A DNA stretch of 32,000 bases, from positions 1,349 to 33,348 of the forward strand of contig JAVYME010000007.1 in the NCBI GenBank assembly GCA_038736825.1. Direction: 5' to 3'. Within the stretch, counting starts at the first letter, position 1; each line of letters begins with the position of its first letter. The notes beneath the pieces were generated by a model, which was not told where the DNA came from, ran no database searches, and saw only the letters and a program-made list of their open reading frames with translations. Below, one piece after another: positions 1,483 through 30,980 of the stretch. This DNA comes from Candidatus Iainarchaeum sp. GTDB lineage: Archaea; Iainarchaeota; Iainarchaeia; Iainarchaeales; DTGL01. The position numbers were made by a program, and so were the translations under genes.

Positions 1483-1488
1483 GGTTGA

Positions 1489-4437
1489 ATGCAATGCTTG
1501 GTTTTTTTTTGCGCAAAGGCTTTTTTTTGTTTTTTTTCTTTTGCTTTTTTTCCTGTAATCGCTCAATCTACTGTTGATTCTGGGGTTGTTGTTGCGCAAA
1601 GGTTTGGTTTGGACAGGGTTTTGCTGGAATGGGATGTGAATGCGATAACTCCCACTATGTGTGATCCTTTGTTTGTTGTGGGAGAGAGTGGTTTTTTTTG
1701 TGATGCAACCCAGTTTTCTATAATGCTTTCCAAGCGTCTTGTGTTGGAGCCTGACTTGAATGAGTTTGAGGTTTTGCTGTTGGCGGATAATTATGGGGGT
1801 TCTTTTAGGGAGGCTTTTTCTGGTTTTTATTCTGGGCGTCTTTTTTTGGGTGGCAGGGTTGATGTTTCCAAGTGGTTTTTTTTGAATAGTCCTGGGCGGG
1901 CTGGCTTGTACAGGGTTTTTTTGGATTCTAATGAGGGTGGTTTTTTTGTTAGGTTTGTTTTGGTGGAGGACTTGAATGGCTTGGATTCCAGGTTGGGCAC
2001 TCGTTTTTCTGAGAATCCGTTTTTTGGTTTGGCTTTTGATGCTTTTCCTTTTGATGGTGAAAGGGATTTTGGTTTGACTGGAAAGGGTGAGGTTTTTTAT
2101 TTGAATGATGTTTCACGGCTTCCTGTTGCGGTGAATGATTCTTCTGGGCTTGAGGTTGAGTCTGGAAAGACTTTTGCGGATACTGCTTCTGGTTTGGTTT
2201 TGGGTTTTGATTTGAAGTCAAGGGTTTTGAGGTTTAATCGTTCTGTTCCGTCTGTTGTTTCTTTGCATTTGCGTGAGAGTGGTTCTTTTACTGGTTTTTA
2301 TTCTTTGGCTGATTTGTCTGGCAGGGTTTTTTCTCGCGATTTTTTTGGGGATAGGGTTTTTTTGTTGGATTGGAGTGGTTCTGATGGGGTTTTTAGGGAT
2401 GTTTTTTTGGATAGGGTTGCTTCTGGTTTGAGGTGTGATGGTTGGAGTGAGAGTTTGCCTTCTGGCAAGCTGGTTGTTTCTCCCGGGGTTTCTGATTCTT
2501 TGTCTTTTCATTCTGTTGTTTTTTTGCCTGAAGGGGTTGTTTTGAGGTGGTTGTGTGTTTCTGGTGATGCGTTTGTGGAGTTGCGTTCTTTTGCTGGTGG
2601 TGTTAGTGGTTTTTATTCTGGTGTGAGGAATGGTTTTGTTTCTTCTGGGCGTTTGTTGTCTGTTTCTTTGCCGGCTGGTTCTTTTGAGGGGGTTTTTTCT
2701 TTGAGGGCTGTTTTGGGGGAGGTTGTTGCTGGAAGAGTGAGGGTTTTGTCTGAACCGGAAAAGGGTTTGTTTGCTTTGTTTTGGAATGAAAAGGCTTTCA
2801 GGGAACTGGTGGTAACAGGAGAAAAGCCGGAAGATGAACCGGTTGCAGAGGAAATAAGCAGTTATGCTGCACTTCCAGCAGGTGGAGCGAATGCACCCTA
2901 TGTTTTCAAGGTTTACTTGCAACCATTGTCTCCAACCGGCAGGGAGGACATTTATTGTTTTGCTTCAGGAATAGATCCAAACAATTCACCCTTAAATTTT
3001 ATTTTCACTTGGAGGCTTAACGGAATTGAAGTTCAAAAATACCAAATTAATGGCGCTTTGAGTGGCGCTGAACGCACTCAATCAAGCATGCTTTCCAAGC
3101 AAAAACTGGCTGAAAGAAGAGCGAGCACTGGAACAGTGATTGAATGCGAGGTTATAGTCAACAATGGCAGAACCCAAAGCCATCCGGTTACAGCCAAAGC
3201 AACCATTGGACAGGAAAACCCAGTCGGGCAAAGCTCTGGCGCTCTCCCTGATTCTGATGGTGATGGAATTCCAGATGCAAGCGATAGATGCCCTTATGAA
3301 AAAGGCACTTTAGCCAACCAAGGCTGCCCTTCAAGCACTCCATCACTGCCAGCTTCTCCGTTGACGCCATCACAGTTGACACCATCACAAAACACTGTTT
3401 CCTTTTATTTCCTTCCAATTGACTGGGAAGGCTCTCAGCAATCCTTTGAAACCGAAGTGAACGGGCAACTCGCTTTTTTGCTGGAAAAATCCGGCATTAA
3501 AAGCGATCCAGCCTGTTCAGGGTTTTCCTTTCAAAAAACAATCCTTCCAATGACTCTAGCAGAACAATGCGGTTTGAGCTTGAAAACCACAATCAATTAC
3601 AATGACTTTTTGTCAAAAGTTTATAGTTGCCTTCAAAGACAGGGAATTCCCTTAAACAATAAAAAAACCATTTTTGCAGGTTTAAGCAATTCAACCTCCA
3701 GCAGCTTAGTTGTTTGCTCTTACACGGCTTCAGGCTCTCAGTGCTTTAACTGGTTTGGTTTTCACGATCGCCTTGGAGGTTCAGGGTTTGGCACAAGCGT
3801 TTTGATTGCACTGGCTTCAACAGTTGGAAGCCCAAAACTTGGCTTTGACCTGTTCTCTCACGAAGTAGGGCACAGCCTGGGCTTTTGCGAGCAATACTCT
3901 TATTCTAAAAATGTGGCTCAACAGAGTGCCAGGCAGTTCAGCAGTTTTGGTGGTTGCACAAACAAGTATCCCGGGAGTGGGGAAACACTGTATGCCTTGC
4001 TTTTTTCCCAGTCCTATGAAAAATGCCCTGGTGAAACAATTCCAACCAATTGCCCTGAATTTGTGCAAATAAGCTATGTGAGTGCATACGATTTGGGTTT
4101 AACCACCACTCCAACCGAGGACAGCACTAAAGCCAAGGTTTTGTCATCAGAGTTAAGGGAAAAAATAAGATTGCATTGCTCTAAATTTGCTTCCCCAGAC
4201 AAATGCATTTCAGATTATGTTTCAAGGCAGAACTGGTCTCTGCCTGATGTGGACTGCCTTGGCAGAAGGTTTTTTGTCGCCGGAAAGGAAAACAGGGACA
4301 TTATGGGGGTAGTGTCCAAAATCCAACAGGAAATGGCAATGGTTTTTACAAGAGCAGGCTATTCTTCAAACCCAGAGCGTTCCTTTGACTGTTTTGAAAA
4401 AGAACAATTCAAAAAACAGTGGTGTTTGGGGGGCTGA
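1489..4437 (+). CDS. Large secreted multidomain zinc metallopeptidase (M6-like HExxH domain at the C-terminus)
   Basis: 982-codon ORF with GAGG 5 nt upstream of the ATG and a hydrophobic N-terminus. It contains a TSP3-like Ca-binding repeat (DSDGDGIPDASDRCP), a P/S/T linker, an HEVGHSLGFCEQY zinc site, and a C-terminal tail shared with ORF 3..746. The first ~420 codons have an aberrant G+T-rich composition (see findings). Confidence 0.8.
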   Translation: MQCLVFFCAKAFFCFFSFAFFPVIAQSTVDSGVVVAQRFGLDRVLLEWDVNAITPTMCDPLFVVGESGFFCDATQFSIMLSKRLVLEPDLNEFEVLLLADNYGGSFREAFSGFYSGRLFLGGRVDVSKWFFLNSPGRAGLYRVFLDSNEGGFFVRFVLVEDLNGLDSRLGTRFSENPFFGLAFDAFPFDGERDFGLTGKGEVFYLNDVSRLPVAVNDSSGLEVESGKTFADTASGLVLGFDLKSRVLRFNRSVPSVVSLHLRESGSFTGFYSLADLSGRVFSRDFFGDRVFLLDWSGSDGVFRDVFLDRVASGLRCDGWSESLPSGKLVVSPGVSDSLSFHSVVFLPEGVVLRWLCVSGDAFVELRSFAGGVSGFYSGVRNGFVSSGRLLSVSLPAGSFEGVFSLRAVLGEVVAGRVRVLSEPEKGLFALFWNEKAFRELVVTGEKPEDEPVAEEISSYAALPAGGANAPYVFKVYLQPLSPTGREDIYCFASGIDPNNSPLNFIFTWRLNGIEVQKYQINGALSGAERTQSSMLSKQKLAERRASTGTVIECEVIVNNGRTQSHPVTAKATIGQENPVGQSSGALPDSDGDGIPDASDRCPYEKGTLANQGCPSSTPSLPASPLTPSQLTPSQNTVSFYFLPIDWEGSQQSFETEVNGQLAFLLEKSGIKSDPACSGFSFQKTILPMTLAEQCGLSLKTTINYNDFLSKVYSCLQRQGIPLNNKKTIFAGLSNSTSSSLVVCSYTASGSQCFNWFGFHDRLGGSGFGTSVLIALASTVGSPKLGFDLFSHEVGHSLGFCEQYSYSKNVAQQSARQFSSFGGCTNKYPGSGETLYALLFSQSYEKCPGETIPTNCPEFVQISYVSAYDLGLTTTPTEDSTKAKVLSSELREKIRLHCSKFASPDKCISDYVSRQNWSLPDVDCLGRRFFVAGKENRDIMGVVSKIQQEMAMVFTRAGYSSNPERSFDCFEKEQFKKQWCLGG

Positions 4438-4440
4438 AAA

Positions 4441-5145
4441 ATGCGCAAAACGTTTTTGGTTTTTGCTTTTTTTCTTTTTTCAGTCCAAGTTTTTGCAGTA
4501 AATCCGGAAAAATGCCTTTTTTTCAGGGTTTTTTGGGAGAAAGGCGATTACCAGATAGACAGCTTGCGAATTGTAATGGATTTTCCGCTGGAAGTAGACC
4601 CTGAAGGCGATTACTTGGTAAAATTGCTTGATTCAAAGGGCACTGCATTATACCAGCACAAAACAAAAAAGGCCAGCACTGTTTTAGAGCAATCCATCGA
4701 ACCATTGAACGGTGAAACCACTGACCAAAACATTGTAATAGATTTTGACACAATTGCTGGAACCCAGAGAGGGCAAATGTTTTTCCTCTTGCCTTATACT
4801 GAAAACGCGAAAAAAATTTCCTTTGAGCATGGCACTGCGGTTTTGGCTGAAGCGGATTTAAGCGTTTTATGCCAAGCAAATGGAAAGTGTGAAAGCCAGG
4901 AAAACTTTTTGTCTTGCCCGCAAGACTGTCCCTTGAGCGAAAAGGACAATTATTGTTATGCTTTCACAGACGGAACCTGTGATCCGGACTGCATTGAAGG
5001 CTTTGATTCTGATTGCACTAAAAGCAATGGAGTGAAAAAAGAACAGTTTTCCCTTGAACAAGTTTATTTTATTGGAGTGGTGGTTTTAGCCTTTGCTTTA
5101 ATGGTTTCATACAATGTTTTAAGGAAAAGAACCGGAAAAAAATAA
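4441..5145 (+). CDS. Signal-peptide protein with 8-Cys module and C-terminal TM anchor (paralog of 751..1482)
   Basis: MRKTFLVFAFFLFSVQVFA is a signal peptide. The Cys module is C-x5-C-x6-FLSCPQDCPLSEKDNYC...CDPDCIEGFDSDC. The C-terminal helix YFIGVVVLAFALMVSY is followed by RKRTGKK. The gene starts 3 nt after the stop of 1489..4437. Confidence 0.8.
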   Translation: MRKTFLVFAFFLFSVQVFAVNPEKCLFFRVFWEKGDYQIDSLRIVMDFPLEVDPEGDYLVKLLDSKGTALYQHKTKKASTVLEQSIEPLNGETTDQNIVIDFDTIAGTQRGQMFFLLPYTENAKKISFEHGTAVLAEADLSVLCQANGKCESQENFLSCPQDCPLSEKDNYCYAFTDGTCDPDCIEGFDSDCTKSNGVKKEQFSLEQVYFIGVVVLAFALMVSYNVLRKRTGKK

Positions 5146-5955: not shown

Positions 5956-6587
5956 TGGTTTTTCTCCAGCAATACTGCTTTTTTTCCGCACAATTTTGCG
6001 AAAAGCTTTGCGTTTTCAATTGTTCCGTTTCCAGCATCTCCACCGTAATGCATTGGTATTGCGATTTCTGGATTGATTGCTTGAACTGCTTTGACTGCGT
6101 CCTCTGCGCTCATAGTGTAAGTGCCATCCACTGGCAGGAATGCAACATCCACTTTTCCCTTCAAGGAATTCATTTCTGGAATGAAATCAGTGTCGCCTGC
6201 AATGTAAAAGCGCACTTTTCCTGTTTCGAAAACAAAGCCTGTTCCGATTCCTTTTGGATGGAATGGTTTTGAAACATTGTAAGAGGGCACTGCAAAAATT
6301 TTGACTTCTTTTGCTTCAAAAGACTGTCCTGCTTTTAAGGGAACGGTTTTCCATTTTGAAAGCTTTTGCGCTGCAAGTGAATTGCAAACTATTATTGTTT
6401 CAGGCGAGGCAATTTTTGCAATGTCTTCTGGCGAGCAATGGTCAAAGTGTTCATGGGTTACCAGCACAATGGATGCCTTTTCGTTTTCTTTTATGTTGAA
6501 TGGGTCTGTGTAAATCGTGTTATTGCCTGTTTTTATTTTGAAGCAGGCATGGCAAAGCCATTCTATTATAGTGCCCTTGAATTCCAT
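5952..6587 (-). CDS. Metallo-beta-lactamase-fold hydrolase (UPF0173-like)
   Basis: Motifs seen are HACFKI, VLVTHEHFDHC (HxHxDH) and AGDT...PMHYG. Its length of about 210 aa is typical of the archaeal UPF0173 metal-dependent hydrolases. Confidence 0.8.
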   Translation of the reverse strand: MEFKGTIIEWLCHACFKIKTGNNTIYTDPFNIKENEKASIVLVTHEHFDHCSPEDIAKIASPETIIVCNSLAAQKLSKWKTVPLKAGQSFEAKEVKIFAVPSYNVSKPFHPKGIGTGFVFETGKVRFYIAGDTDFIPEMNSLKGKVDVAFLPVDGTYTMSAEDAVKAVQAINPEIAIPMHYGGDAGNGTIENAKLFAKLCGKKAVLLEKNQ

Positions 6588-6693: not shown

Positions 6694-8061
6694 TTAAGCA
6701 GATTCTTTTTTCTTTGCTATTGATTTGTGGAGTTTTTCAAGTTTTTCCAGGGCTTTCTCGCGCTCTTCCTTTTTTTTATCCGCCTCTTTCTCTTCAGGTT
6801 TTTTTTCCTCTTCTTTTTTTGGTTCTTTTGCTGGTTCCATTGATTGTGGTGCTGGGGCTTCTTCTTTTTTCAATTCCTCTTTTTTTGTTTTTTTTGCCTT
6901 TTTTTTGCCTTTTTTGCCCTCTTCTTTGAGTTTCTTTTCTTTTTCCAATCCAATTATTTCATCCACTGCTTTCAAGAACAAGCCAGCTGTCCAAGCAAAA
7001 GGGCTTTCGCTTTTCAACAAAAAAGAATCAATCGGCCTTTTATGCTTGTCAAAGATTTCATTGGTAACACAATAATTGTTTATTTGCCATGCAAGCCTGT
7101 CCAATTCCATTAGTGCTTGTTCTTTTAAGCCGATTTTGTTGAGAGCAATTGCGTTCATGCAACCAATCCAAGGCCAAGAGAACCCGTTATGGTAATAATA
7201 GGCTTTTGTTGGCAGTATTAATAGTGAGGGCACTACCTTCCAAAAAGGATAGGGCGGATAATTGGTTTTCATGGGCACTTGGTTTAAGCCGTGTTTTTCA
7301 ATGAATTCCTCTATTTTTAGCGCTCTATCGCTTGTGGCAATGCCCCATGCGACTGCAAGCACGTTTCCATCGCTTGAAAAATAATTGTGTTTTGTTAATC
7401 CAATCCAGTCAGTGTAATAATAGTTTTCCCAAAACTTTATGTTTAGGGCAAGCCTTGTTGTTTCAGCCCTTTTCTCGTATTCTGTTGAAATCATTTTCAC
7501 TCCAAGCCAGTCTGCGAGAAAGGCGAATTCTTTGAGTGCATAATAATAACAGCAGTTGGAGTAAAGCACTTTGCCGTGCTTTAATATGGTGTCAGCCCAG
7601 TTCGAGAAAAAGCCCTCTTCTATTAAGCCGTCCTTGTCGCGATCCATTTTGCAAAGCCATTCCATTGAAAGCGAAACCTTTTTGAAATTGGATTCTATGA
7701 AGACTTTGTCATCGCTTTTCCTTGCATAGTCTGCAAGTGCGATTACAAAGAGTGCATTTGAGTCCACTGGTGGTGGAAAAAAAGCAAAGGGCTTGTATTT
7801 TGGCTTTAATTTTAGGGAAATTATTGCTGGAAGAAGCCCTTTTTTGTCCTGCAAGTCCAAAAACAATTGCAGGTTGTTTTTTGATTGCTTGAAATCGCCT
7901 ATAGCGTTTGCCCCAAGAGAGGCAAAAAACGAATCCCTTGCCCAGTATTGCTGGAAATGCCCTCTTCCAGCCAAAATGCCGGATTCAGTATAGCATTCCC
8001 GCAAGTCTCTTTTAGCGATTTCTATTGCGTCAGCAATGGCTTTCTCCAAGCAAAAAACCAT
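6694..8061 (-). CDS. Amylo-alpha-1,6-glucosidase / glycogen-debranching-type (alpha/alpha)6 glycoside hydrolase with K/E-rich C-terminal tail
   Basis: GRGHFQQYWARDSFFASLGA and the downstream W/Y-rich pattern are typical of the archaeal GDE_C family. The last ~84 aa are a low-complexity K/E/P tail. Confidence 0.65.
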   Translation of the reverse strand: MVFCLEKAIADAIEIAKRDLRECYTESGILAGRGHFQQYWARDSFFASLGANAIGDFKQSKNNLQLFLDLQDKKGLLPAIISLKLKPKYKPFAFFPPPVDSNALFVIALADYARKSDDKVFIESNFKKVSLSMEWLCKMDRDKDGLIEEGFFSNWADTILKHGKVLYSNCCYYYALKEFAFLADWLGVKMISTEYEKRAETTRLALNIKFWENYYYTDWIGLTKHNYFSSDGNVLAVAWGIATSDRALKIEEFIEKHGLNQVPMKTNYPPYPFWKVVPSLLILPTKAYYYHNGFSWPWIGCMNAIALNKIGLKEQALMELDRLAWQINNYCVTNEIFDKHKRPIDSFLLKSESPFAWTAGLFLKAVDEIIGLEKEKKLKEEGKKGKKKAKKTKKEELKKEEAPAPQSMEPAKEPKKEEEKKPEEKEADKKKEEREKALEKLEKLHKSIAKKKESA

Positions 8062-13462: not shown

Positions 13463-13632
13463 GCCGAGATGGCGGAGTGGCCCAACGCGCCAGCCTTGAG
13501 CCCAGCCTTTTTCTTTTAAAAAGAAAAAGCCTAGGTTTGACAAAAAGAAAGACTTGATGGCAAAAGAAAATTGTGCGGCAAGCAAGCTGGTATGCCTTTT
13601 GGCATGCGGGGGTTCGAATCCCTCTCTCGGCG
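13463..13632 (+). tRNA. tRNA-Ser(UGA) with 84-nt intron (13501..13584) at position 37/38
   Basis: The acceptor stem is GCCGAGA/TCTCGGC with discriminator G. The anticodon stem is CCAGC/GCTGG with loop C-T-TGA-G|A. The long variable arm is ATGCC-TTTT-GGCAT and the T-arm is GGGGG-TTCGAAT-CCCTC. No CCA is encoded. A T9 run follows immediately. ATATTAAAA lies ~20-25 nt upstream. Confidence 0.9.
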
Positions 13633-21348: not shown

Positions 21349-21568
21349 GCCGAGATGGCGGAGTGGCCCAACGCGCCAGCTTGGAGCCTGCCCTTTCTTT
21401 TCTTTTAACAAAAGAAAAGAAAGTGTAAGTTGCCCAAAGAAAAGAAAAACGGTTTTGGGTTGCGGAAAAGAAAGAAAACTTTTGGTTTCCAAACAAAGCC
21501 AGGTGTTTTTGCAGCCAATTAGCTGGTATGCCTTACGGCATGCGGGGGTTCGAATCCCTCTCTCGGCG
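21349..21568 (+). tRNA. tRNA-Ser(GGA) with 134-nt intron (21387..21520) at position 37/38
   Basis: The exons are nearly identical to the tRNA at 13463. The anticodon loop is T-T-GGA-G|A and the variable arm is ATGCC-TTAC-GGCAT. There is a perfect hBHBh' motif: CCAGC TTGG [AG|C] CTGC ... GCAG CCAA [TT|A] GCTGG. Confidence 0.9.
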
Positions 21569-21572
21569 CTGT

Positions 21573-21794
21573 TCATTTTTCTTGGATTAACTGCCCTGCT
21601 TTTTCCGTGTCAGCGTAAAACTCCAAATAACCGCAGTCAAGGCACAAGTGGGCGGTCACCATTGGCAGGTTTAACGCAAACACCGGAGTCTTTTTTTTTG
21701 AAGAAAAATATTTTGGCGGCATTACAGTCGGGCTCACATAACCAGAATCAATCCTTGTTGAACCGCACTTAGGGCATTTCACCATGGCCATCAA
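21573..21794 (-). CDS. Small zinc-ribbon protein
   Basis: It has two CxxC pairs (CPKCG ... CLDCG) in 73 aa. It lies just downstream of the Cys-repeat gene on the same strand. Confidence 0.55.
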   Translation of the reverse strand: MMAMVKCPKCGSTRIDSGYVSPTVMPPKYFSSKKKTPVFALNLPMVTAHLCLDCGYLEFYADTEKAGQLIQEK

Positions 21795-21853: not shown

Positions 21854-23203
21854 TCACTTCCGGTTTTGCACATTAAGATAGCATGTCTCCTTTTCGTATT
21901 CTGCAAGCCAATTGCAATAAGAGGAATCGCCTGTTGCCAAAGCCAAACAATAGTTTTTCATTTGCTTGTCTGAAATCTTTTCGCACAAAACCGGGTTTTT
22001 TTCTATTTGTGCAACACCGCTATAGCATTGCTGGAACCAAACATTGTTATCCTGCTGGAGCATGTCGCAATACTCTGTCTTTCTCGAATTGATTGCAATG
22101 AGGCTAATGCAACTGCTTTTATAGTCCTTGTCCAAAATTTTCTGGCAAAGCCAGAGGTTTTCCTCTTTTCCTTCCGCCAAAAAATAATAACAGTTTTCCT
22201 TGCTTGTAGTGGCAGTATCCTGAATGGAATTGTCGCCCTCAAGGAGTTCGCAAACAGACGGATTGCTGGTGTTTCTTGCAACAAAACTATAACACTTTCC
22301 TTTTTCATAAGCGATTGTGAGTCCAGCGCACTGGTTGACATCTGTGGAGAAAACCAGCCTGTTGACAAGGCATCTTTCCCTGCTTGAAACATCATTTGAA
22401 ATCTGTTCGCAGATTCCGGCTGCAAAAAAGCAAGCGTTTTTGTGCTCTTCAAGCGAAAGCCTTTTGCATTCCGCAAGCGCCTTTTCCCTTGAAAGCTGTG
22501 AAGAATACTCTGCAATGCAGAATTGTGCATCCCTTGCCCTTTCACAGAGTTTTATGTCGCCTGCCTCAACCGCTTTTTTGTTATAGCACTCGTTTATTGC
22601 AATTTGTTTTTGCAATCCAATGCGAAGGGTTTTAGCCTCTTCCATTGTTTCGCATTCAGGCAATGGCTCTCTTGCCCTTTTTATTGCGTGCTCCAGGCAT
22701 TGCTCTTTAAGTTTTTCAGACTCTATTTTTTCGCACAATCCAGTGTGTGGCAGGTCGAAAGAGAGCGACAAATAACAGTTGTCCCTTTCGCTTGCGCTTC
22801 CAATCAAAGCACAGGATTCAGGGTTTTTTGAAACCTTTGCAACAGTGAAAATACAACTGTGCCTGTAATTCTCGTTTTCCACCAACAAGCATTCACTTGA
22901 ATCCAGCGATTTTGTTGCGTTGTCGTAATGCATTGAATCGCTCTGGCTTAAGCCGGGGTAACTGCGGTAACCCTGTTTTTTGAAATCGCTTTCCGGAACA
23001 TAATCGCCTGACTGCCCCCAATCCCCTTCATAATATTTTGTCTTATTGAATGGCATTATTCCTTCACCCAAAACCTCCAAAGGGCTTTTCTCCCAGCCAA
23101 AAACCGAGTGCCCGAAAAACAACAAAAAAAGCGAGCCAGCGATTGCAAGCAAGAGAAAAGCCATTAAACCAAAAACCATTACTGGAGTAAAACTGGATTG
23201 CAT
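21854..23203 (-). CDS. N-terminally membrane-anchored protein with 13 tandem C-x(8-13)-C units
   Basis: The N-terminal TM helix is VMVFGLMAFLLLAIAGSLFLLFF. It has 26 Cys arranged as 13 pairs, mostly C-x11-C followed by an aromatic or aliphatic residue, for example CALIGSASERDNCY, CEKISDKQMKNYC and CQKILDKDYKSSC. A TATA-like AATTAAATAC lies ~25-35 nt upstream. Confidence 0.75.
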   Translation of the reverse strand: MQSSFTPVMVFGLMAFLLLAIAGSLFLLFFGHSVFGWEKSPLEVLGEGIMPFNKTKYYEGDWGQSGDYVPESDFKKQGYRSYPGLSQSDSMHYDNATKSLDSSECLLVENENYRHSCIFTVAKVSKNPESCALIGSASERDNCYLSLSFDLPHTGLCEKIESEKLKEQCLEHAIKRAREPLPECETMEEAKTLRIGLQKQIAINECYNKKAVEAGDIKLCERARDAQFCIAEYSSQLSREKALAECKRLSLEEHKNACFFAAGICEQISNDVSSRERCLVNRLVFSTDVNQCAGLTIAYEKGKCYSFVARNTSNPSVCELLEGDNSIQDTATTSKENCYYFLAEGKEENLWLCQKILDKDYKSSCISLIAINSRKTEYCDMLQQDNNVWFQQCYSGVAQIEKNPVLCEKISDKQMKNYCLALATGDSSYCNWLAEYEKETCYLNVQNRK

Positions 23204-23317
23204 GAAAGAATTTCTCTCTTGCAGTATTTAATTGTACCGTTTTGCCTTACCAGAAAAGAATATTAAGGGGAAACGCTTTGATTTTATTGCCTAAGCGCGC
23301 TATTCAGAGGCTTTGAA

Positions 23318-23422
23318 ATGAAAAAGTTTTTTTTCTTATTTTTTGCCCTTGTTTTTGACAGCAATGGTTTTAGCCCTTCCACTCTTTTCAATGATGAAAA
23401 AAAGAGAGTGTTAAAAAAATGA
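23318..23422 (+). CDS. Doubtful 34-codon mini-ORF with signal-peptide-like N-terminus
   Basis: Hand translation gives MKKFFFLFFALVFDSNGFSPSTLFNDEKKRVLKK. Its TGA overlaps the ATG of the next gene (ATGA at 23419-23422). It is too short for the ORF track. Confidence 0.25.
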   Translation: MKKFFFLFFALVFDSNGFSPSTLFNDEKKRVLKK

Positions 23423-24963
23423 AAAAGGAAATCTTTCAAAAAATTTTTGCAATTTTGGTTTTTTTCCTGTTTTTTGCCAGTGTCAAGGCAGACACCTTCA
23501 ATATCCCGTTAGCTCGCTTCGGCTTAGTGCAAAGCATTGGAGAAAAAAAGGCAATTTTTGAAAACCAGATTAAGCCGATTGTTGAAACCTTTAGACTTAA
23601 TGCAGACATTTCAAGCCTTGAAGATTGCGCCAACAAGTCCACCACCATTCAAGGGCAGGGGCAATGCCAAAACACCATTGAAATAGCCTTTCAGGCTGCA
23701 TTGCCCTACAATGACATGTATGCCCAGACAAAGTATTCCCTTTTAAGGGACGGAATTGAATTCCAGCCCGCTTCAAGCATTCCGCCTTCAAAAATTTCAC
23801 TTGGAGACACAATCCGCATTGAACCCCAAATTGTAACCCAAGAAATTTCACACCCCATCCAGGACTGGACAGTACAAGGCGCATCCACAGACACTCCACC
23901 AATAGAAATCCTTTCAAGCAGGGAATTCAACACGCTTGCCGAAATGTTAACCCTAAGACAGCGCGAAAGATATCCTGCCTCAGGGGAATTAATGGATGCG
24001 CTTAGAGTTGAAAAATTCAAAACCGAGGTTGTTCCCTGGACTGGCGGCAACAGTTATGTTGGATTCCAAGGCAAAACCTATCATGTTGTCGAATTGGCTG
24101 GAGGCAAAAAAGCAGGAGTGCTAATTGCTTGCGCTGAATCCATATCAGCAACCACTTACAGTGGCACTTGCAATTCCGACCCTTTAAGCGACAGTGTTGA
24201 ATGCCATATAACCAAAATGCCTGAAAACAGAAAAGCTGAAATTGTCATTAATCCCTTTTTTAACTGCTTTATTCACTTTGACAGGATTTTCACTGGAAGC
24301 ATAGCGCTTCAAGCAGACTGGTTTGGCCAAACCTTTGGCAATGTTCCAAAAAGCCCATTGTCTTTTCAGGTTCTGCCAACCGGCAGAGAAAAACCCCCTA
24401 TAGCAGAATTCGAGTGCAATATTGACAATTGCACGCCGGATTCAGAGCAACCAAAATGCCTTTACTGTGATGCTTCCAAGTCAAGCGATGAAGACGGCAG
24501 AATAGAATCCTATTTTTGGACAATCGCTGGAAGCTACACTACCGCCATTGGAGTTAAATCCAAATTCTACCCTCAATCCCTTCCCAAAAGCACAATAAGC
24601 ATAACCCTAAAAGCAACAGACAACCAAGGCTTTTACAGCGAGAAAACAAAAACCTTCAGTGTAAGTGAAGGAACACTAAAAGAAACAGGCATGACAGATA
24701 AACTGTCTTTTATTGCAGAATACAATCCCTCCACAAAAAAAGCAGAACTCACTCTCTCCAATTGCCCACCCACTGCCATGCAAGCATTCCTTGACATTGA
24801 CTTGCTTGGCTTTGACGCCAAACCAGTGCTTTCAATTTTAGAAAAACAACCAATTGCCTGCGAAAAAACAACAGAGGTTGGCCCGATAACCGCGAAAGGC
24901 GTTTACCAAGCAACAGCCAAAATAAACAGCCAAACAATTCAAGCAATATTTTCAGTTCCATAA
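23419..24963 (+). CDS. Secreted protein of unknown function (possible PKD/Ig-like segment)
   Basis: MKKEIFQKIFAILVFFLFFASVKA is a signal peptide. The segment CDASKSSDEDGRIESYFWTIAG...ITLKATDNQG resembles PKD-type beta-sandwich motifs. There is no C-terminal anchor. Confidence 0.7.
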   Translation: MKKEIFQKIFAILVFFLFFASVKADTFNIPLARFGLVQSIGEKKAIFENQIKPIVETFRLNADISSLEDCANKSTTIQGQGQCQNTIEIAFQAALPYNDMYAQTKYSLLRDGIEFQPASSIPPSKISLGDTIRIEPQIVTQEISHPIQDWTVQGASTDTPPIEILSSREFNTLAEMLTLRQRERYPASGELMDALRVEKFKTEVVPWTGGNSYVGFQGKTYHVVELAGGKKAGVLIACAESISATTYSGTCNSDPLSDSVECHITKMPENRKAEIVINPFFNCFIHFDRIFTGSIALQADWFGQTFGNVPKSPLSFQVLPTGREKPPIAEFECNIDNCTPDSEQPKCLYCDASKSSDEDGRIESYFWTIAGSYTTAIGVKSKFYPQSLPKSTISITLKATDNQGFYSEKTKTFSVSEGTLKETGMTDKLSFIAEYNPSTKKAELTLSNCPPTAMQAFLDIDLLGFDAKPVLSILEKQPIACEKTTEVGPITAKGVYQATAKINSQTIQAIFSVP

Positions 24964-24979
24964 AAATAAAAGCCAGAAC

Positions 24980-25675
24980 TCAGTTTTTGCCAGCATTAAA
25001 CTTTACCCTAATATGCGAGCCATCACAAAACGGCTTGTTCTTTGAAGCACCACACCTGCACAAAGTAACACGATTCCTTTCCTCATAATATGTGCCATCT
25101 GAAGATTTTATTGGAACAAAGCCCTTAACCCAGATTGGACCAGAGCATTTTGCCTGCGGGTCCTCCACCAACCCAATAGAAGGCTTGAATTTTGGCTCTA
25201 TTGCCCTACCGGTTTTTTTATGCCATACCACTAGCCTTCCAGAAGGGCAATTGCAAGCGGTTTCAATTGCCAGTTTCCTTTTTTTAACATTGCCTGACAG
25301 TTCAACCTGCTTCCAAGTGCCACCAGCCCTATGGCAAAACCTTGCAACAGCACACAATTTTGGAGCATCAGTCAAATCAATGCCAGGACCAAAAAACCTT
25401 TGCGCTTGCGCCAAATACCGTTTCTTCAAGGCAGTTTCCATTCCATTAAACCCAATTGTTTGGTGCGAGCCATCACAAAAAGGCTTGTTCTTTGAAGCAC
25501 CGCACCTGCAAAGCGCAAAAGAATCCCTTTTCTCAAACTTTTCACCAGCAATCCATTTTTCAGGCTCATTATCCCTGCCAATTCCAATGATTTCCTTCCT
25601 TAAAGGCAAGCCGCCAAAAACAAGGTATGGACCGTTCTCTGCAATCACAATTTCAGCCTTTTTCCCGCCAGCCAT
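24980..25675 (-). CDS. CDGSH-type iron-sulfur protein with two CDGSH motifs and a central Cys-rich (divergent 4Fe-4S-like) segment
   Basis: CRCGASKNKPFCDGSH occurs twice. The central segment is CAVARFCHRAGG...CNCPSGRL. Confidence 0.85.
   Translation of the reverse strand: MAGGKKAEIVIAENGPYLVFGGLPLRKEIIGIGRDNEPEKWIAGEKFEKRDSFALCRCGASKNKPFCDGSHQTIGFNGMETALKKRYLAQAQRFFGPGIDLTDAPKLCAVARFCHRAGGTWKQVELSGNVKKRKLAIETACNCPSGRLVVWHKKTGRAIEPKFKPSIGLVEDPQAKCSGPIWVKGFVPIKSSDGTYYEERNRVTLCRCGASKNKPFCDGSHIRVKFNAGKN
25014..25060. repeat. 47-nt intragenic direct repeat, copy 1 (CDGSH motif)
   Basis: TGCGAGCCATCACAAAACGGCTTGTTCTTTGAAGCACCACACCTGCA differs at 2 positions from the copy at 25464..25510. The offset is 450 nt. 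Confidence 0.9.
25464..25510. repeat. 47-nt intragenic direct repeat, copy 2 (CDGSH motif)
   Basis: This is the copy matching 25014..25060. Confidence 0.9.
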
Positions 25676-25727
25676 TCAAACCAACCCCAGATTAATCAAA
25701 ATACAAAACAAAAAAAAGAAAAAGAAA

Positions 25728-25742
25728 GCGGGCAAAGCCCGC
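25728..25742 (-). terminator. Hairpin plus T-run terminator after the 478-aa gene
   Basis: The hairpin is GCGGGC-aaa-GCCCGC. On the - strand it is followed directly by TTTCTTTTTCTTTTTTTTGTTTTG. It lies 21 nt downstream of the stop at 25763. Confidence 0.65.
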
Positions 25743-25762
25743 AAACAAATTGATAAACCCAT

Positions 25763-27199
25763 TTACACGCGGGTTGCAATCCAATCTGTTACTCCGCCAG
25801 TGCCAGCTCCACCACTCATATAATTCCAGCTAGGATCAATAGTCCCAGAAATGGTTGCAGTATAACTGTTCTCGTATGTGATGGTCATCGTTATTGTATT
25901 CCCTGTAACTTGACCAGTCATTGTCCAATTGTAAGGGGAGTTGTAAGGCGGTCCTGAACCTGCTGGATATCCTCCGGTTCCACTAATTGTTCCATCCGGA
26001 TTCTGCGTCACAACAATCATGTCGTGAATGTAGGCTCCTGAGTTGACACTAAGCAACCATGTTCCAGTAACTTTGCCAGCGTTTGGGTTTACCAGTCTAG
26101 TGAATTCTTCCACTACGCTTTGGCTGCAACCAAATTTCCTGTGCCCTTCCATGTTCCCGTAAAGCGCTGGATTGTACGCCTGCAATAAGTCCAATATCTG
26201 AGAACAACTGCAACCATTAGTGCTAGCCAAAGTGAAAGGCGATTGTGCCGCATAAAAGGTTGTCTTGCCCTTCACATTCTTTGAAGACAGCGTAGTGAAA
26301 TAGTCATCCCAGTTATAGGTGTCTGTCCACATTAGCCTGTTCACGCCCAAATAGCCCGCAGTCCCTATGAATCTGCCGTCAATCTTCCAAGGATCATTTG
26401 CTGTTGTACTGCAATACCAATTGCACACGTGCTGGTCTATTGTGCCATCGCAATCGTTATCCAAAGTATCGCAGACCTCGGTTGCATCCGGGTTTACATT
26501 TGGGTTGGAGTCATCACAGTCAGAGCTATCTTCGACAAAGCCCTCACCGCACTCACCACAGAACTCTTTTGAATTGTTGGGATCTCCAAATCCATCTTCG
26601 TCAGAGTCCGCATAGCAAGTGACAGAAGCCACTTCATCATAAGATATCTCTGCCTTGTAGATTAACCCAGTTGGATTGACTTCAGGATCGGTCGTAGGGT
26701 ATGCATAGTTCCTGACAATAAACTGCAACTTGTTAGAACCAGCCTGCAATCCAGTCAAATTGTAACTCAAAATTGTATTCCATTCCTGGTTGTCCACAAA
26801 TGGTCCTTGGACTTTGCCATCACTGCCAATCAAAGCACCATTCAAGTAAACCTCTTCAGCATTATCAGAAGTAACACTCACAATGTTCCCTGAAAGATTA
26901 GTCACACAAGACGGAAGCACTATCTCGCGCTCAAACAACCTCCAACTATCATTCTGTGCATCTTCTGTATAGTAAGCGCTTGAAATCCAATAAGCACCAT
27001 CAATAGTCGGCCAAAGAGGATGTTTCCATGTCACAACTGCATTGTTTGAAGTTCCCCAGTCTGTAGAATCTATTTCTGCATAATGGTCTATTGGACCGTA
27101 AACCAGTGTGTCTGTATCACTGACAATTGTCATTGTTGCAGCCATAGCAGTAGCGGTCAGCAAGACAGCTATTGCCATTATTCCCAATATTTTTTTCAT
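25763..27199 (-). CDS. Secreted protein: N-terminal beta-sandwich-like domain, Cys-rich DxDxDG/DCDD metal-binding-type repeat, G/T/S-rich C-terminal domain
   Basis: MKKILGIMAIAVLLTATAMA is a signal peptide. CYADSDEDGFGDP...DCDDSNPNVNPDATEVCDTLDNDCDGTIDQ resembles the MopE-like putative metal-binding repeat. GGAGG lies 7 nt upstream of the ATG. The amino-acid composition (T/S/G/N/Y-rich, K-poor) is unlike the housekeeping genes. Confidence 0.8.
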   Translation of the reverse strand: MKKILGIMAIAVLLTATAMAATMTIVSDTDTLVYGPIDHYAEIDSTDWGTSNNAVVTWKHPLWPTIDGAYWISSAYYTEDAQNDSWRLFEREIVLPSCVTNLSGNIVSVTSDNAEEVYLNGALIGSDGKVQGPFVDNQEWNTILSYNLTGLQAGSNKLQFIVRNYAYPTTDPEVNPTGLIYKAEISYDEVASVTCYADSDEDGFGDPNNSKEFCGECGEGFVEDSSDCDDSNPNVNPDATEVCDTLDNDCDGTIDQHVCNWYCSTTANDPWKIDGRFIGTAGYLGVNRLMWTDTYNWDDYFTTLSSKNVKGKTTFYAAQSPFTLASTNGCSCSQILDLLQAYNPALYGNMEGHRKFGCSQSVVEEFTRLVNPNAGKVTGTWLLSVNSGAYIHDMIVVTQNPDGTISGTGGYPAGSGPPYNSPYNWTMTGQVTGNTITMTITYENSYTATISGTIDPSWNYMSGGAGTGGVTDWIATRV

Positions 27200-27446: not shown

Positions 27447-29663
27447 TTAAGGACTCGAGGTCTTGTCTTCGTCGCAATGCCCTGGACCAATATAGCCCTC
27501 GTTATAGGAAGCCAACAGCGAGGCAGTGCTAGTGAATTGCTTTCTCAATGAATCGTTTGCCTTCAAAGCCCCAATTTGTGCCGGCGTATATGTGCTGAAC
27601 CAAGTGTCTGCTTTGGCTATTGCCTCACTTACGCTGGCAGGCGCGTCAGCCCCATTCAAAATGTTAAGCCTTGCAGCCATGAACTGGTGAGCCAATTGAT
27701 AGTAGACATTGCCCTTTACTGGAGTCCAAAACACTTTATACCAGGTTTGACCGCTCAAATAGAACGGAGTGCTTGCCCCAGTTGGTGCCAGCAAAGCCCA
27801 AGTGTCATCGTATGGTGCTTTTCCGAACTCTGAATGGGTTTTCCAATAGCCTTGAGTCAAAGTGCAGCCCTGTATGCATTCCACGTTCACCAAAACAGAC
27901 CAGCTGTCTTCGCCCTTGGTTTCAGTGTCATTTGTAATGAATTCTGCAGTGTTGTCTATTTTGTGTTCGCCGCACCCTTCAGGGTCAGAGTATGGACCGA
28001 TTGTCCAAGTGTATTTAAAGGTTTTTGGAGCTTGTCCAGCGCAAACCGAGCCCAAAGTTCCCTTTAATGTGTCTGTGACTTCAATGCATTCATCTGTTTC
28101 TGTTGTCGGGCTGCCAAAGGTTATGTTTGCAGTTCCACTGTAATCTGTTGTTCCGCTTGGAGTGGGAGAGCCATTGAATGGATGGGAATAGTTTTGTTGT
28201 GTTGCTGTGGCAGTGTTTGTTCTAGTAGTGCTGTCTGGAAGTGTTGCGCTATAAGTGCAGGTGAGTGTTTGCCCTGCTGGCAGACTGTATGGGAATGTTT
28301 CCGGGCAATTTACTGTTGCTGCTCCAACTCCACTAATTGCGTCTGTTACGCTATTGATTGTTGCCGGAATTGTGGCTGGATTGCTTACTGTTATGTTGCC
28401 TGAAACGCTCCAACCAGAATCTGTATGGGTTTTGTCCACTTTCACTTCATAGTTTAGAATGTAAGTTTCCCCTGGTGCAAGAGTCAACTCGGTTTTGTCA
28501 GCTTTCTTGTCAATAGTCCAATTGTATTTTCTTGTGAACCCTGTACTGGCAGTTTTTGCAATTGAAAGCTTGTAGCAATCAACTGTAACGCTTGCACTGT
28601 CCTGTTGTCTTGTTTGAGTTATTGTTGCAGTGTTGTTGATTGTTTTGCTTCCATGATTGTTGGAATAGGTTATTCCACTGCAATCAAAGGTTTTGTTGTA
28701 AGTTACACTGCCAGAATTGTTAAACAGCCATGGGCCGCCTTGCGTGTCAGTAACTTCTATTGAAGAATTTGAAGGCCGTGGGCTTACCCCGCTAAAATTT
28801 ATTTCTTTGGAGGCACTGTTTCCGCCAACATCTCCAGTAGTGGTGACTGTGGCAGTGTTTGTTCTAGTAGTGCTGTCTGGAAGTGTTGCACTGTAAGTGC
28901 AGGTGAGTGTTTGCCCTGCTGGCAGACTGTATGGGAATGTTACTGGGCAATTGACTGTTGCTGCTCCAAATCCACTAATTTCGTCTGTTACATTGGTTAT
29001 TTGCGCTGAAGCGTATTGTGCTGGATTTGTGATTGTTATTTGTCCAATAACAGAATAAGTTGTGGATCCAAGGGTTTTTGTCACTGTAATGGTGTACTGT
29101 GATTGTCCAGAATCACCGTCAAACAAAACCCAAGCATCAGGTGTAACACTCTTGTCAATAGTCCAAACATAGTTTTGCTCAATGTGCGGATAAACATTCT
29201 TTGAAACCGAAAGGTTTACTTGTTCATAGTTGACAGAAACAGCTTTGTTGCCATTTGAGGGACTGTCAAAACCGTCGTTCAGTGTGCCATTCCAAATGAC
29301 TGTTGCAGTCCATGCCCCTCCAACTAGGTCTGCAGTTGATGCAACATAATCAGCACTTCCAACAAAGCTTGTTTCTGTTGGATTTGGATAGTTGTTTGGT
29401 CCAAAGGTGTGCTCTGTGCCGTCTGGCAATTTTAATGTTAGTGTTCGGTTGGTTATGTCGCAACCATCGCTTGATGATGGGTTTCCAGCGCTAACTGTAA
29501 AGGTTATTGTTTGTCCTGGTTGTGCTGAGGCTGTGCTTCTTGCAATGTTTACAACGCTGTTGTCTGCGTTACAGCCTGGCGGTGATGCCGGGTCTGCGGC
29601 CATAACGCTTGGTGTTGCCAGCAACAAGGCAATTGCTGCCAGCAATAATATTTTTTTGTTCAT
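27447..29663 (-). CDS. Large secreted protein with DUF11-like repeated beta-sandwich modules and a C-terminal TQGYWK-motif domain
   Basis: MNKKILLLAAIALLLATPSVMA is a signal peptide. Repeated modules follow the pattern W-T-I-D-K ... G-x-I-T-[IV]-[TS]-N-P ... I-x-x-V-T-D ... ATVNCP.TFPYSLPAGQTLTCTYSATLP. The C-terminal domain carries GCTLTQGYWKTH. GGAGG lies 8 nt upstream of the ATG. Confidence 0.85.
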   Translation of the reverse strand: MNKKILLLAAIALLLATPSVMAADPASPPGCNADNSVVNIARSTASAQPGQTITFTVSAGNPSSSDGCDITNRTLTLKLPDGTEHTFGPNNYPNPTETSFVGSADYVASTADLVGGAWTATVIWNGTLNDGFDSPSNGNKAVSVNYEQVNLSVSKNVYPHIEQNYVWTIDKSVTPDAWVLFDGDSGQSQYTITVTKTLGSTTYSVIGQITITNPAQYASAQITNVTDEISGFGAATVNCPVTFPYSLPAGQTLTCTYSATLPDSTTRTNTATVTTTGDVGGNSASKEINFSGVSPRPSNSSIEVTDTQGGPWLFNNSGSVTYNKTFDCSGITYSNNHGSKTINNTATITQTRQQDSASVTVDCYKLSIAKTASTGFTRKYNWTIDKKADKTELTLAPGETYILNYEVKVDKTHTDSGWSVSGNITVSNPATIPATINSVTDAISGVGAATVNCPETFPYSLPAGQTLTCTYSATLPDSTTRTNTATATQQNYSHPFNGSPTPSGTTDYSGTANITFGSPTTETDECIEVTDTLKGTLGSVCAGQAPKTFKYTWTIGPYSDPEGCGEHKIDNTAEFITNDTETKGEDSWSVLVNVECIQGCTLTQGYWKTHSEFGKAPYDDTWALLAPTGASTPFYLSGQTWYKVFWTPVKGNVYYQLAHQFMAARLNILNGADAPASVSEAIAKADTWFSTYTPAQIGALKANDSLRKQFTSTASLLASYNEGYIGPGHCDEDKTSSP
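28205..28349. repeat. 145-nt intragenic direct repeat, copy 1
   Basis: There are 7 mismatches in 145 nt against 28847..28991. The offset is 642 nt (214 codons, in frame). Confidence 0.9.
28847..28991. repeat. 145-nt intragenic direct repeat, copy 2
   Basis: This is the copy matching 28205..28349. Confidence 0.9.
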
Positions 29664-29671
29664 TTTTTTTT

Positions 29672-29676
29672 CCTCC
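29672..29676 (-). promoter_or_regulatory. Shine-Dalgarno GGAGG for 27447..29663
   Basis: The - strand reads AAAGGAGGAAAAAAAAATG. The same 19-nt leader precedes rubrerythrin (30541-30559). Confidence 0.55.
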
Positions 29677-29757
29677 TTTGTTTTTTTTTGATTAATATAT
29701 TGTGTTTCTTAAATCACTGAAAAAAGTAATTTAAAGTGATGTATTTCTGGGTTGTAA

Positions 29758-29848
29758 TTTGTTTGTTTGTTGTTTGTTTATTTTTTGTTTTTTTTGTTGT
29801 TTTTTTGTTTATTTTTTGCATTTTTTGTTTTATTTTTTTTCTTTTTTG
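29758..29848. repeat. Low-complexity T(n)G tract (A(n)C on the - strand)
   Basis: The + strand reads tttgtttgtttgttgtttgtttattttttgtttttttttgttgtttttttgtttattttttgcattttttgttttattttttttcttttttg. It lies about 95-185 nt upstream of the 738-aa gene start. Confidence 0.8.
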
Positions 29849-30018
29849 AAGTAATTGGCAGTTTAGTTGGTGTTTTCAGTTTGTTTTTTTTAGTGCGGTT
29901 TTTTCGCTGTATTCTTTTCTTTCTGTGAATTCTTGGGTTTTTCCTATGTTCCATTGCTGTACTGGCCTGTAGTAGCCGCATACTCTGGAGTATACTTCTG
30001 TTTTGTTTTGGCATTTTT

Positions 30019-30543
30019 TCATTTTGCTCCCCTTTCCTCTGACAAGTGCAAGTGGTCGGATTCAACTTCCACGAGTGCTTTGAATATTTGTTTTATGCGT
30101 GGGTGGGTTGATTGTTTTGCTGCGGTTTTGTAGAATTCTATTGCTCGGCTTTCTCTTGCGTGGGATTCGTTCAGGTTTTGCTTGTAGTCTGTGGTGCATT
30201 CGGCTGTTCCTTTTGGGGTTTCGTTTAGTTTTAGTATTTTTTTCCAAATGCTTGCGTGTTCTGTTTCTATTTTTGCGAGTGCTTTGAATAGTTTTTTTGC
30301 TTCTGGTTCTGGGGTTTTTTCTGCAGCACAATAGTAGAAGGTGGAATTGCTTGTTTCGACTTGGAGTGCGTGTTCTGCGTTTGTTTTGTCTTTTTCGTTT
30401 AATTCAATGTTGAATTCTGGCTTGGCTTTTTTGAAGGGTTTTATGTGTTTGCCGTTTGCTCCGCAGAACGGGCAGTTGGTTGGGTTTTTGTATCCTATGT
30501 ATGGGTCTCCGCAGATTTCGCAAATCCAGAGTTTTGCTTTCAT
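30019..30543 (-). CDS. rbr: Reverse rubrerythrin (N-terminal rubredoxin-like CxxC...CxxC, C-terminal ferritin-like di-iron domain)
   Basis: The N-terminus is WICEICGDPY...CPFCG. ExxH motifs are ETEHA and VESDH. The ATG at 30543 (MKAKLW) is preceded by GGAGG with an 8-nt spacer. Confidence 0.85.
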   Translation of the reverse strand: MKAKLWICEICGDPYIGYKNPTNCPFCGANGKHIKPFKKAKPEFNIELNEKDKTNAEHALQVETSNSTFYYCAAEKTPEPEAKKLFKALAKIETEHASIWKKILKLNETPKGTAECTTDYKQNLNESHARESRAIEFYKTAAKQSTHPRIKQIFKALVEVESDHLHLSEERGAK

Positions 30544-30563
30544 TTTTTTTTCCTCCTTTTTTT

Positions 30564-30941
30564 TTAATTGCAGTTTTTGCATTTTCCTTCAAAGATTATT
30601 TTTACTGTTTCGGGCGTGAAGTTTTTTGAGTCGAATTTTTCTATTAATTGTTTGCAGGTTTCAGTGCATGGCAAATCCATTATTTTTCCGCACTTGCTGC
30701 ATACTGCGTGCCTGTGAATGTTTTTGTCTGCGTCAAAGTGGTATTCGCCGTTTATTTCGAACCGCAGTATTTCTCCGTTGTCTGCCATTTTGTGCAGGTT
30801 TCTGTAGACTGTTGCCAGGGTTATTGTCGGAATGTCTTTTTTTACTGCTTTGAAGACTGTTTCTGCTGTTGGGTGGTTTTTGGTGCTGTAAAGGAATTCC
30901 TTGATTTTGTGTTTTTGCACTGTGTTCCTGGATTGCGCCAT
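30564..30941 (-). CDS. Fur-family (PerR-like) metal-dependent transcriptional regulator
   Basis: The winged-helix region is HPTAETVFKAVKKDIPTITLATVYRNL. HFDADKNIHRHAVCSKCGKI and the C-terminal CKNC give the structural Zn CxxC pairs. The ATG at 30941 is preferred over the TTG at 30947. The gene is directly upstream of rubrerythrin. Confidence 0.8.
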   Translation of the reverse strand: MAQSRNTVQKHKIKEFLYSTKNHPTAETVFKAVKKDIPTITLATVYRNLHKMADNGEILRFEINGEYHFDADKNIHRHAVCSKCGKIMDLPCTETCKQLIEKFDSKNFTPETVKIIFEGKCKNCN

Positions 30942-30980
30942 AAGCAAGCCTTATTAAAAATCATTATTAATAAATAAGCG

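Follow-up and report, generated by a model that had tools for sequence, protein, structure and literature searches.

Two G+T-rich islands and their genes

The stretch of 32,000 nucleotides analysed here (the window), part of contig JAVYME010000007.1 of the uncultivated archaeon Candidatus Iainarchaeum sp., contains two islands of about 1.3 kb in which the + strand, the strand as presented, is strongly enriched in G and T. All positions are those of the whole window, and the evidence base is this one metagenomic contig with its two islands. A preliminary description had drawn attention to both islands, and its counts are all reproduced: the + strand has 957 G or T among 1251 nucleotides in 1495-2745 (0.765, z=16) and 888 among 1261 in 29690-30950 (0.704, z=12 against the window mean of 0.534), with local values of 56/60 in 29761-29820 and 44/60 in 30121-30180. 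The limits of the islands were set by likelihood segmentation of the window coded as G/T versus A/C (Table 1); the two lie 28 kb apart, and the segmentation found no further segment as extreme in the window. Runs of 41 codons with G or T at the third position occur 28 times in the window and not once in 100 shuffles.

Table 1 Features of the window discussed in the text, with coordinates and strand.
Feature	Position	Strand	Description
Island 1	1495..2813	.	1319 bp; + strand G+T 0.76; limits by likelihood segmentation
Weak opposite-polarity zone	22997..25851	.	+ strand A+C 0.58; spans the convergent pair 23419-24963 (+) / CDGSH 24980-25675 (-)
738-aa secreted protein gene	27447..29663	-	GGAGG-A8-ATG ribosome-binding site as in rbr; not at this position in relatives
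Island 2	29651..30935	.	1285 bp; + strand G+T 0.71 (A 0.14, C 0.14, G 0.22, T 0.49); limits by likelihood segmentation
Operon 3' spacer	29740..29875	-	136 bp, non-coding; - strand nearly all A/C; + strand T 0.69, G 0.18, A 0.10, C 0.03
nrdD-like ORF	29876..30022	-	48 aa; PF13597 E=4.8e-11; C-terminal glycyl-radical end of the anaerobic ribonucleotide reductase NrdD
Rubrerythrin gene (rbr)	30019..30543	-	174 aa; N-terminal rubredoxin-like domain ('reverse' rubrerythrin)
Fur-family regulator gene (fur)	30564..30941	-	125 aa; ATG at 30941; PF01475 E=3.5e-23, residues 3-116 of 125
msrB-fur spacer	30942..30980	-	39 bp, A/T-rich; TATA-like element; palindrome TTATTAATAA; G+T 0.38, outside the island

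Island 2 spans one predicted transcription unit on the - strand, from the start of fur to the first - strand oligo-T at 29720-29725. Its right edge, at 30935, is sharp and coincides with the fur start codon. The unit is composed of fur, rbr and a short nrdD-like open reading frame (ORF). The FUR domain is present over its full length in the fur product, and the fraction of fur codons ending in A or C (A/C3) is 0.81. The gene is probably leaderless, since there is no Shine-Dalgarno sequence in the spacer upstream. The palindrome of this spacer, judged by its sequence, is a candidate Fur/PerR box. The rbr product has a four-helix ferritin-like domain (PF02915, E=2.6e-15) and a Cys4 rubredoxin-like domain, where PF21349 matches residues 6-30 with a score below the cut-off. 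It has 650 homologues, and C8, C11, C24 and C27, together with the Glu/His columns, are invariant in an alignment of 21 sequences, the window protein included. The A/C3 of rbr is 0.89, with only 0.05 of its codons ending in T, and 18 of its first 21 codons end in A or C, as previously counted, the exceptions being ATG, TGG and ATT. Its ribosome-binding site, GGAGG followed by A8, is the strongest in the window. The nrdD-like ORF, with an A/C3 of 0.92, covers the rbr stop codon and is kept after rbr in relatives (the order is the same in L001 and L003, two of the related loci compared below). This ORF stands alone and matches just the last ~37 residues of NrdD; it may encode a 'spare-part' glycyl-radical peptide for oxygen-damaged NrdD that is co-regulated with the oxidative-stress genes. 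The A/C-only spacer that follows runs to the oligo-T and probably represents a 3' untranslated region and terminator.

The tail of island 2, in which the + strand is still G+T-rich, reaches the first ~350 bp of the 738-aa gene, with third positions at 0.68-0.82. The window contains no ribosomal-protein genes, and the 738-aa gene, whose ribosome-binding site is identical to that of rbr, is the sole proxy for high expression there; its A/C3 is just 0.60. The encoded protein is rich in Thr and Ser, has no Pfam match and contains an internal repeat of 145 nt (28205-28349 / 28847-28991, 95%). In relatives, its place immediately behind the rbr operon is taken by AhpC or CDGSH. Upstream of rbr and of the 738-aa gene, and of no other gene of the window, stands one and the same 21-nt translation-start motif, AAAGGAGGAAAAAAAAATGAA (29663-29679 and 30543-30559, -). 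A metagenome scan with this motif returned 58 unrelated loci (315 kb), in which there were no islands and no similarity to the window.

Island 1 extends over codons 1 to about 430 of an ORF for a secreted 982-aa protein at 1489-4437 (+); these codons encode its signal peptide and a conserved N-terminal domain. The N-terminal domain has 35-44% identity to four Iainarchaeota proteins, which indicates that this ORF is the true frame. The fraction of its codons ending in G or T (G/T3) is 0.91 inside the island and 0.48 in the remainder. The bias climbs from 0.73 to 1.00 and then drops within about 80 bp near codon 430, at a sharp right edge. The left edge coincides with the start of the ORF and is adjoined by an A-run at 1453-1459 (oligo-T on the - strand). 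The ORF belongs to a set of tandem paralogous modules on the + strand (1-5145). The genes 66-746 plus 703-1482 resemble the C-terminus of a large protein at a related locus (L087) and the 235-aa gene that follows it (55% and 48%), and the 982-aa gene plus 4441-5145 form a second, more diverged copy of that module pair. The two small genes of the modules have a common 103-nt repeat at their 3' ends (1357-1459 / 5029-5131, 83%).

The edges of the two islands were compared, and no shared motif or repeat was found. G-quadruplex motifs are absent from the edges, and neither edge of island 1 has a TATA-like element. The G+C content of the islands is like that of their flanks (0.37-0.43 vs 0.42), and dinucleotide context was uninformative. 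Between the islands, G/T at four-fold degenerate sites averages 0.45 for + strand genes and 0.56 for - strand genes, with the flanks at ~0.5, and there is thus no net strand effect between them. When G/T3 is taken in 60-codon bins outside the islands, its variance is 3.0 times the binomial expectation, against 1.0-1.8 times in relatives. This over-dispersion, together with the weak zone of opposite polarity at 22997-25851, suggests that strand bias is patchy throughout the genome and that the two islands would be its extremes.

The bias at the level of nucleotides, codons and proteins

In the relatives examined the bias is absent, as a check of the rbr and fur orthologues proposed in the preliminary description shows. 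The orthologous operons at four related loci, L001-L004 (three distinct genomes, L001 and L002 being the same sequence), have A/C3 values of.44-.59 and no extreme 200-bp window. Eighty rbr homologues drawn from GTDB genomes have a mean A/C3 of.515 (sd.067) and a maximum of.74, against 0.89 here. Homologues of the island-1 domain have G/T3 values of 0.5-0.65; a weak G/T3 excess (0.53-0.63) in the orthologous N-domain of some relatives was considered and rejected, being inconsistent across the four homologues. In a 1.23-Mb comparison set of 86 other loci, composed of rbr-homologue loci and six loci around island-1 homologues, no 800-bp window reaches a G+T of 0.66 (sd 0.034), the islands standing at 79% and 72%; no 600-bp window reaches it in a further 0.3 Mb. 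The order fur, rbr, nrdD-like ORF is conserved in related genomes, and so is the order of the 982-aa gene, the 234-aa gene, cdc6 and the MBL gene. The closest genome, GCA_026396995.1, has a gene order in common with the window, and its ArgG, ArgH and HD-domain protein are about 80% identical to those of the window at the amino-acid level. Diapherotrites/Iainarchaeota names are attached to the best homologues of Rbr, in keeping with a DPANN archaeon of that group. Exact-protein look-ups of Rbr (two start versions) and MsrB returned no record. The bias is lineage-specific and rare. Literature searches for kilobase islands of such strength in a prokaryotic chromosome, archaea included, returned no description, and only reviews of strand asymmetry.

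The strength of the bias is best seen at weakly constrained sites. At four-fold sites, in + strand letters, island 1 has T.72, G.17, C.06 and A.04, and island 2 has T.59, G.28, C.09 and A.03. Two-fold sites give T/(T+C) values of.94 in island 1 and.88 in island 2, the corresponding G/(G+A) values being.91 and.88. Three independent classes of weakly constrained site, namely the four-fold sites of the + strand gene in island 1, those of the - strand genes in island 2 and the operon's non-coding 3' spacer, agree, with T at 0.6-0.7, G at 0.2-0.3 and A+C at no more than 0.13, despite the opposite coding orientation of the two islands. The genome's own preference is mild: A/C3 on the sense strand is 0.56 for genes on both strands, and NNR codons favour A over G by 2:1. 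The third positions of msrB, earlier called mixed, instead reflect this usual preference with an A/C3 of 0.67, and the other non-island genes range over 0.36-0.76.

The bias extends into the proteins, beyond the synonymous sites. At codon positions 1 and 2, parsimony was applied to sites at which the window departs from concordant orthologues: island 1 has 88 gains and 25 losses of G/T (A>G 31, C>T 29, A>T 17), and island 2 has 36 gains and 6 losses of A/C (G>A 20). In island 1, K/(K+R) is down at.21, compared with.58-.68 in the orthologues, and in island 2 it is up at.82, compared with.60-.69; for I/(I+V) the island-1 value is.05 (~.4 in the orthologues) and the island-2 value.65 (.31-.45 in the orthologues). 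Relative to the orthologues, N/(N+D) and T/(T+A) are likewise down in island 1 and up in island 2. These opposite shifts of the amino-acid ratios are the ones to be expected from A>G and C>T changes on the + strand. By codon position the bias is strongest at the third, followed by the first and the second (.91/.77/.61). All family-invariant residues of Rbr are intact, and the island-1 domain, with 200 and 199 identities to its homologues, compared with 199 among the homologues themselves, has no extra divergence. This order of codon positions, together with the intact invariant residues and the normal divergence, indicates that the changes were filtered by selection and that the bias accumulated over evolutionary time. 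A single hypermutation event and a conversion-type sequencing artefact are thereby ruled out.

An error of sequencing or assembly in the wider sense, either a one-strand conversion of A and C or a chimeric contig, could be suspected when a single contig from a single sample is at hand. Conversion would strike all codon positions equally, however, and about 83% of A+C has gone from third positions, compared with 49% from first and 29% from second ones; moreover, the frame is open across 982 codons, the invariant residues are kept and the divergence is normal. We consider such an error scarcely credible.

Translational codon adaptation, in which A/C-ending codons would be optimal and rbr and fur highly expressed, agrees with the mild genome-wide A/C3 preference, with the 2:1 excess of A over G in NNR codons and with the strength of the rbr ribosome-binding site. 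On the other hand, the untranslated spacer has the same composition as the genes, positions 1 and 2 and the amino acids are shifted along with the synonymous sites, the regulator Fur is biased as well, and the 738-aa gene has an A/C3 of 0.60 behind an rbr-type site. The orthologues are unbiased, and island 1 has the mirror-image codon bias with the same DNA polarity. This explanation is already largely refuted, and we regard it as very improbable. The orthologues without bias, the shared site composition and the amino-acid shifts together make codon adaptation, protein composition, an assembly artefact and ordinary gene transfer unlikely. The skew is supported as a nucleotide-level property of the DNA, and not one of protein composition or conserved codon adaptation.

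It had also been proposed that the skew belongs to the DNA strand rather than to protein composition or transcription direction. With respect to protein composition this stands, as the site classes agree; independence from transcription direction is overstated. Island 2 coincides with one predicted transcription unit, the equal polarity of two islands is a 50% coincidence from which no polarity rule can be established, and weaker patches of opposite polarity lie in 22997-25851. Antisense ORFs in island 2, which had been called spurious and attributed to depletion of stop codons, indeed have no family matches, but the depletion is modest (about 25%): the + frames have 8.6-11.7 stops per kb per frame in island 2 and 10-12 elsewhere.

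Several features of the DNA between the islands can be described. Gene orientation flips from + to - (convergent) at 5145/5146, the end of the Orc1/Cdc6 gene 5146-5991, and the cumulative GC skew has a broad maximum at about 5-9 kb. In the glycosidase-like gene 6694-8061 (-), T-rich 11-nt periodic repeats (TTTTTTTTGCC) occupy positions 6764-6926 within the 3' end, where the local + strand G+T is 0.735, and encode a Lys/Gly-rich tail. A 170-nt tRNA identified by Rfam at 13463-13632 (+), probably intron-containing, was missed by ARAGORN. A 72-nt copy of its 3' half (85% identical) is found 7.9 kb away at 21507-21578, with no full tRNA. This copy resembles the remnant of an integration site; the genes in between are, however, syntenic with a relative. 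The CDGSH iron-sulfur gene has a coding G/T3 of 0.64, the reverse of nearly all other genes in the window, and an internal 72-nt direct repeat (25014-25085 / 25464-25535, 85%) that reflects its two CDGSH domains.

A probable mutation pressure and the alternatives to it

On balance, both islands were probably made by a lineage-specific, local and strand-asymmetric mutation pressure that was filtered by purifying selection. In segments of ~1.3 kb, A and C would disappear from the + strand, largely by C>T and A>G changes and to a smaller extent by A>T and G>T, until third positions and non-coding sites come near a mutational equilibrium with T at about 0.6-0.7 and G at about 0.2-0.3. At positions 1 and 2 only tolerated replacements would become established: in genes on the + strand these are K>R, I>V and Y>F, and in genes on the - strand R>K, V>I, A>T and D>N. 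Purifying selection on the encoded proteins would preserve their function. Deamination of C and A, depurination followed by insertion of A, and guanine oxidation give this spectrum on a strand that bears lesions, is single-stranded or is poorly repaired. The parsimony counts and the two-fold equilibria both have the excess of + strand C>T and A>G expected of single-strand deamination. Since the spectrum runs towards T and then G, we infer that the + strand is the damaged one, lesion-bearing, exposed or unrepaired in both islands. Mutation rather than selection would be the driver. Mutation pressure is the most economical account of the common equilibrium, of its presence in non-coding DNA and of the directional amino-acid change.

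Candidates for what exposes this strand are a stable R- or D-loop, resection that a nick or break initiates at the sharp right edges, and some process linked to the transcription unit. The profiles of the bias would agree, purely by inference, with resection or strand displacement that begins at these edges. An R-loop from a divergent promoter of the 738-aa gene was set aside, as the polarity does not flip at that promoter. A more specific proposal, which we make tentatively, is that ~1.3-kb segments of this DPANN chromosome have one strand that is habitually single-stranded or unrepaired, through an R- or D-loop or through resection or displacement initiated at a site, and that this leads to a mitochondria-like deamination skew which reshapes proteins.

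Several points weigh against mutation pressure. Canonical transcription-associated damage falls on the non-template strand, in agreement with island 1, whereas the G+T-rich strand of island 2 serves as the template for fur and rbr; the polarity is unchanged at the promoter of the 738-aa gene, and a TATA-like element is missing at both edges of island 1. Both edges of each island are fairly sharp, which is less expected of a process that decays with distance than of a defined unit or a recombination tract. There is a single contig, with one member in the 90% protein cluster, and from such data mutation and selection are not directly separable.

The coincidence of island 2 with a transcription unit invites a different rule, in which, in this lineage, the sense strand gains A+C in proportion to expression, through template lesions or through sense G>A and T>C. 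Island 2 would then be a strongly expressed fur, rbr and nrdD-like unit, and island 1 a strong antisense unit of 1.3 kb starting inside the 982-aa gene. Under this rule island 2 would extend, as it does, from the fur start, the probable leaderless transcription start, to just beyond the oligo-T with the 3' spacer included; the mild sense A/C3 preference of 0.56 on both strands and the same sense polarity at the 5' end of the 738-aa gene, with its equally strong ribosome-binding site, agree with it. So does island 1, whose left edge adjoins the - strand oligo-T at 1453-1459 and whose bias peaks at the right edge and declines leftwards. However, no - strand TATA-like element lies near 2790-2860, which leaves the antisense unit in island 1 unsupported, and the rule runs against every described transcription-associated asymmetry, where the non-template strand gains G+T. 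The T-dominated equilibrium would mark the template as the damaged strand, for which no mechanism or chemistry is known. The CDGSH gene, on the - strand, is reversed, and the bias varies within single genes. We therefore hold this rule to be rather unlikely.

The sharp edges, one of them inside a gene, raise the question of whether the islands are two recombination tracts of ~1.3 kb imported from an unsampled relative or a skewed replicon, such as a rolling-circle plasmid or a single-stranded DNA virus. The equal length of the islands, typical of prokaryotic recombination tracts, would suit this, as would the slightly lower number of identities of Rbr to its relatives (123-132, compared with 134-146 among the relatives themselves). 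Against it, gene order is shared with relatives through both islands, the G+C content is like that of the flanks and no mobility genes were found in the window. Among 5.8 billion clusters there is no protein more than 77% identical to Rbr or more than 44% identical to the island-1 domain, and scans of viral contigs for these two found nothing. Gene features mark edges of the islands, namely the starts of fur and of the 982-aa ORF; over-dispersion is seen elsewhere in the genome too; and an import would only move the question to the donor. We judge import to be improbable.

Selection on the composition of the transcripts would have to act in two ways: the mRNA of the stress operon would be A+C-rich (unstructured, low in oxidation-prone G, or free of RNase sites that require G/U), and G+U would be favoured in the first 1.3 kb of the mRNA for the surface protein, for example to make it depend on wobble decoding. 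The sense RNA of island 2 does fold far more weakly than that of the orthologous operons (-18 vs -30 to -38 kcal/mol per 150 nt), the untranslated 3' spacer is included and the genes are those of oxidative stress. Yet two opposite regimes would have to happen to give complementary base frequencies, the near-saturation of 0.88-0.94 and the widespread replacements imply single-base coefficients that are implausible for a small-genome archaeon, and 0 of the 80 relatives show the bias. A nucleotide-cost model (PMC4844684) predicts U and C, not A and C, at synonymous sites. Such selection appears highly improbable.

Two further candidates were rejected. RIP-like mutation of duplicated DNA does not account for A being hit as much as C, for the unchanged G+C content or for a window with no second copy of island 2. 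A diversity-generating retroelement target would be accompanied by a template/variable repeat pair with differences at adenines and by a reverse-transcriptase domain, neither of which is present in the window.

Strand asymmetry is usually weak and of chromosome scale, and is used to infer replication or transcription; here it is near-saturated in patches of 1.3 kb and strong enough to rewrite the amino-acid usage of the conserved Rbr and Fur in predictable directions. If mutational, the islands mark chronic single-strandedness or a failure of repair in an uncultivated archaeon, and they are a natural experiment on the limits of directional mutation in functional proteins. If the segments are indeed habitually exposed or unrepaired, they represent a local, heritable hypermutation regime that is undescribed in any cellular chromosome. 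Such islands also confound the prediction of expression or gene transfer from codon usage, gene calling (through long spurious ORFs) and phylogeny (through convergent K/R and I/V changes).

Comparison with known strand asymmetries

Clusters of strand-coordinated mutations on single-stranded DNA are known from kataegis and from AID/APOBEC showers (PMC3628087). They are similar to the islands in their kilobase scale, strand coordination and deamination-type changes. Unlike the islands, they are one-off somatic events that affect C only and are blind to codon position; in the islands A is affected as much as C.

Transcription-associated asymmetry takes the form of C>T on the non-template strand in E. 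coli and, in mammals, of a G+T excess on the coding strand, with a 5'-proximal zone of 1-2 kb. To our knowledge, the magnitude of the islands is an order above any reported asymmetry of this kind, which has been reviewed elsewhere. Island 1 resembles it in beginning at the 5' end of a gene, in its length of 1.3 kb and in its G+T-rich non-template strand, and island 2 resembles it in corresponding to a transcription unit. The gain of G+T on the non-template strand is present in island 1 (coding G/T3 0.91) but reversed in island 2 (0.08-0.19), where the G+T-rich strand is the template. The extent of island 2 fits a transcribed region from the predicted start to the oligo-T, whereas island 1 stops mid-gene, and the islands are absent from relatives with the same operon. 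A review of transcription-associated mutational asymmetry is available (PMC10030826).

Replication strand bias with strand-specific codon and amino-acid usage is found, for example, in Borrelia burgdorferi and in Lawsonia (PMC2671203; reviews PMC3269012, PMC3269016). As in the islands, one strand has an excess of G+T, and genes on opposite strands have complementary third-position and amino-acid biases. That bias covers whole replichores, switches at the origin and terminus, and is far weaker; the islands are of kilobase scale (1.3 kb), with no net strand effect between them.

In vertebrate mitochondrial DNA, the asymmetry between the heavy and light strands comes from deamination of the strand that is left single-stranded during strand-displacement replication. 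There, as in the islands, C>T and A>G changes have enriched one strand in G+T, the codon and amino-acid usage follows the strand of the gene, and four-fold sites are skewed to a similar extent, with A+C at about 0.1 on the keto-rich strand. The islands differ in being two ~1.3-kb patches of an archaeal chromosome with unskewed flanks, in which T dominates G more, and in that no replication intermediate is known for them. The mitochondrial asymmetry and the replichore-scale bias are the closest analogues of the islands, which bear the same signature at another scale and in another context.

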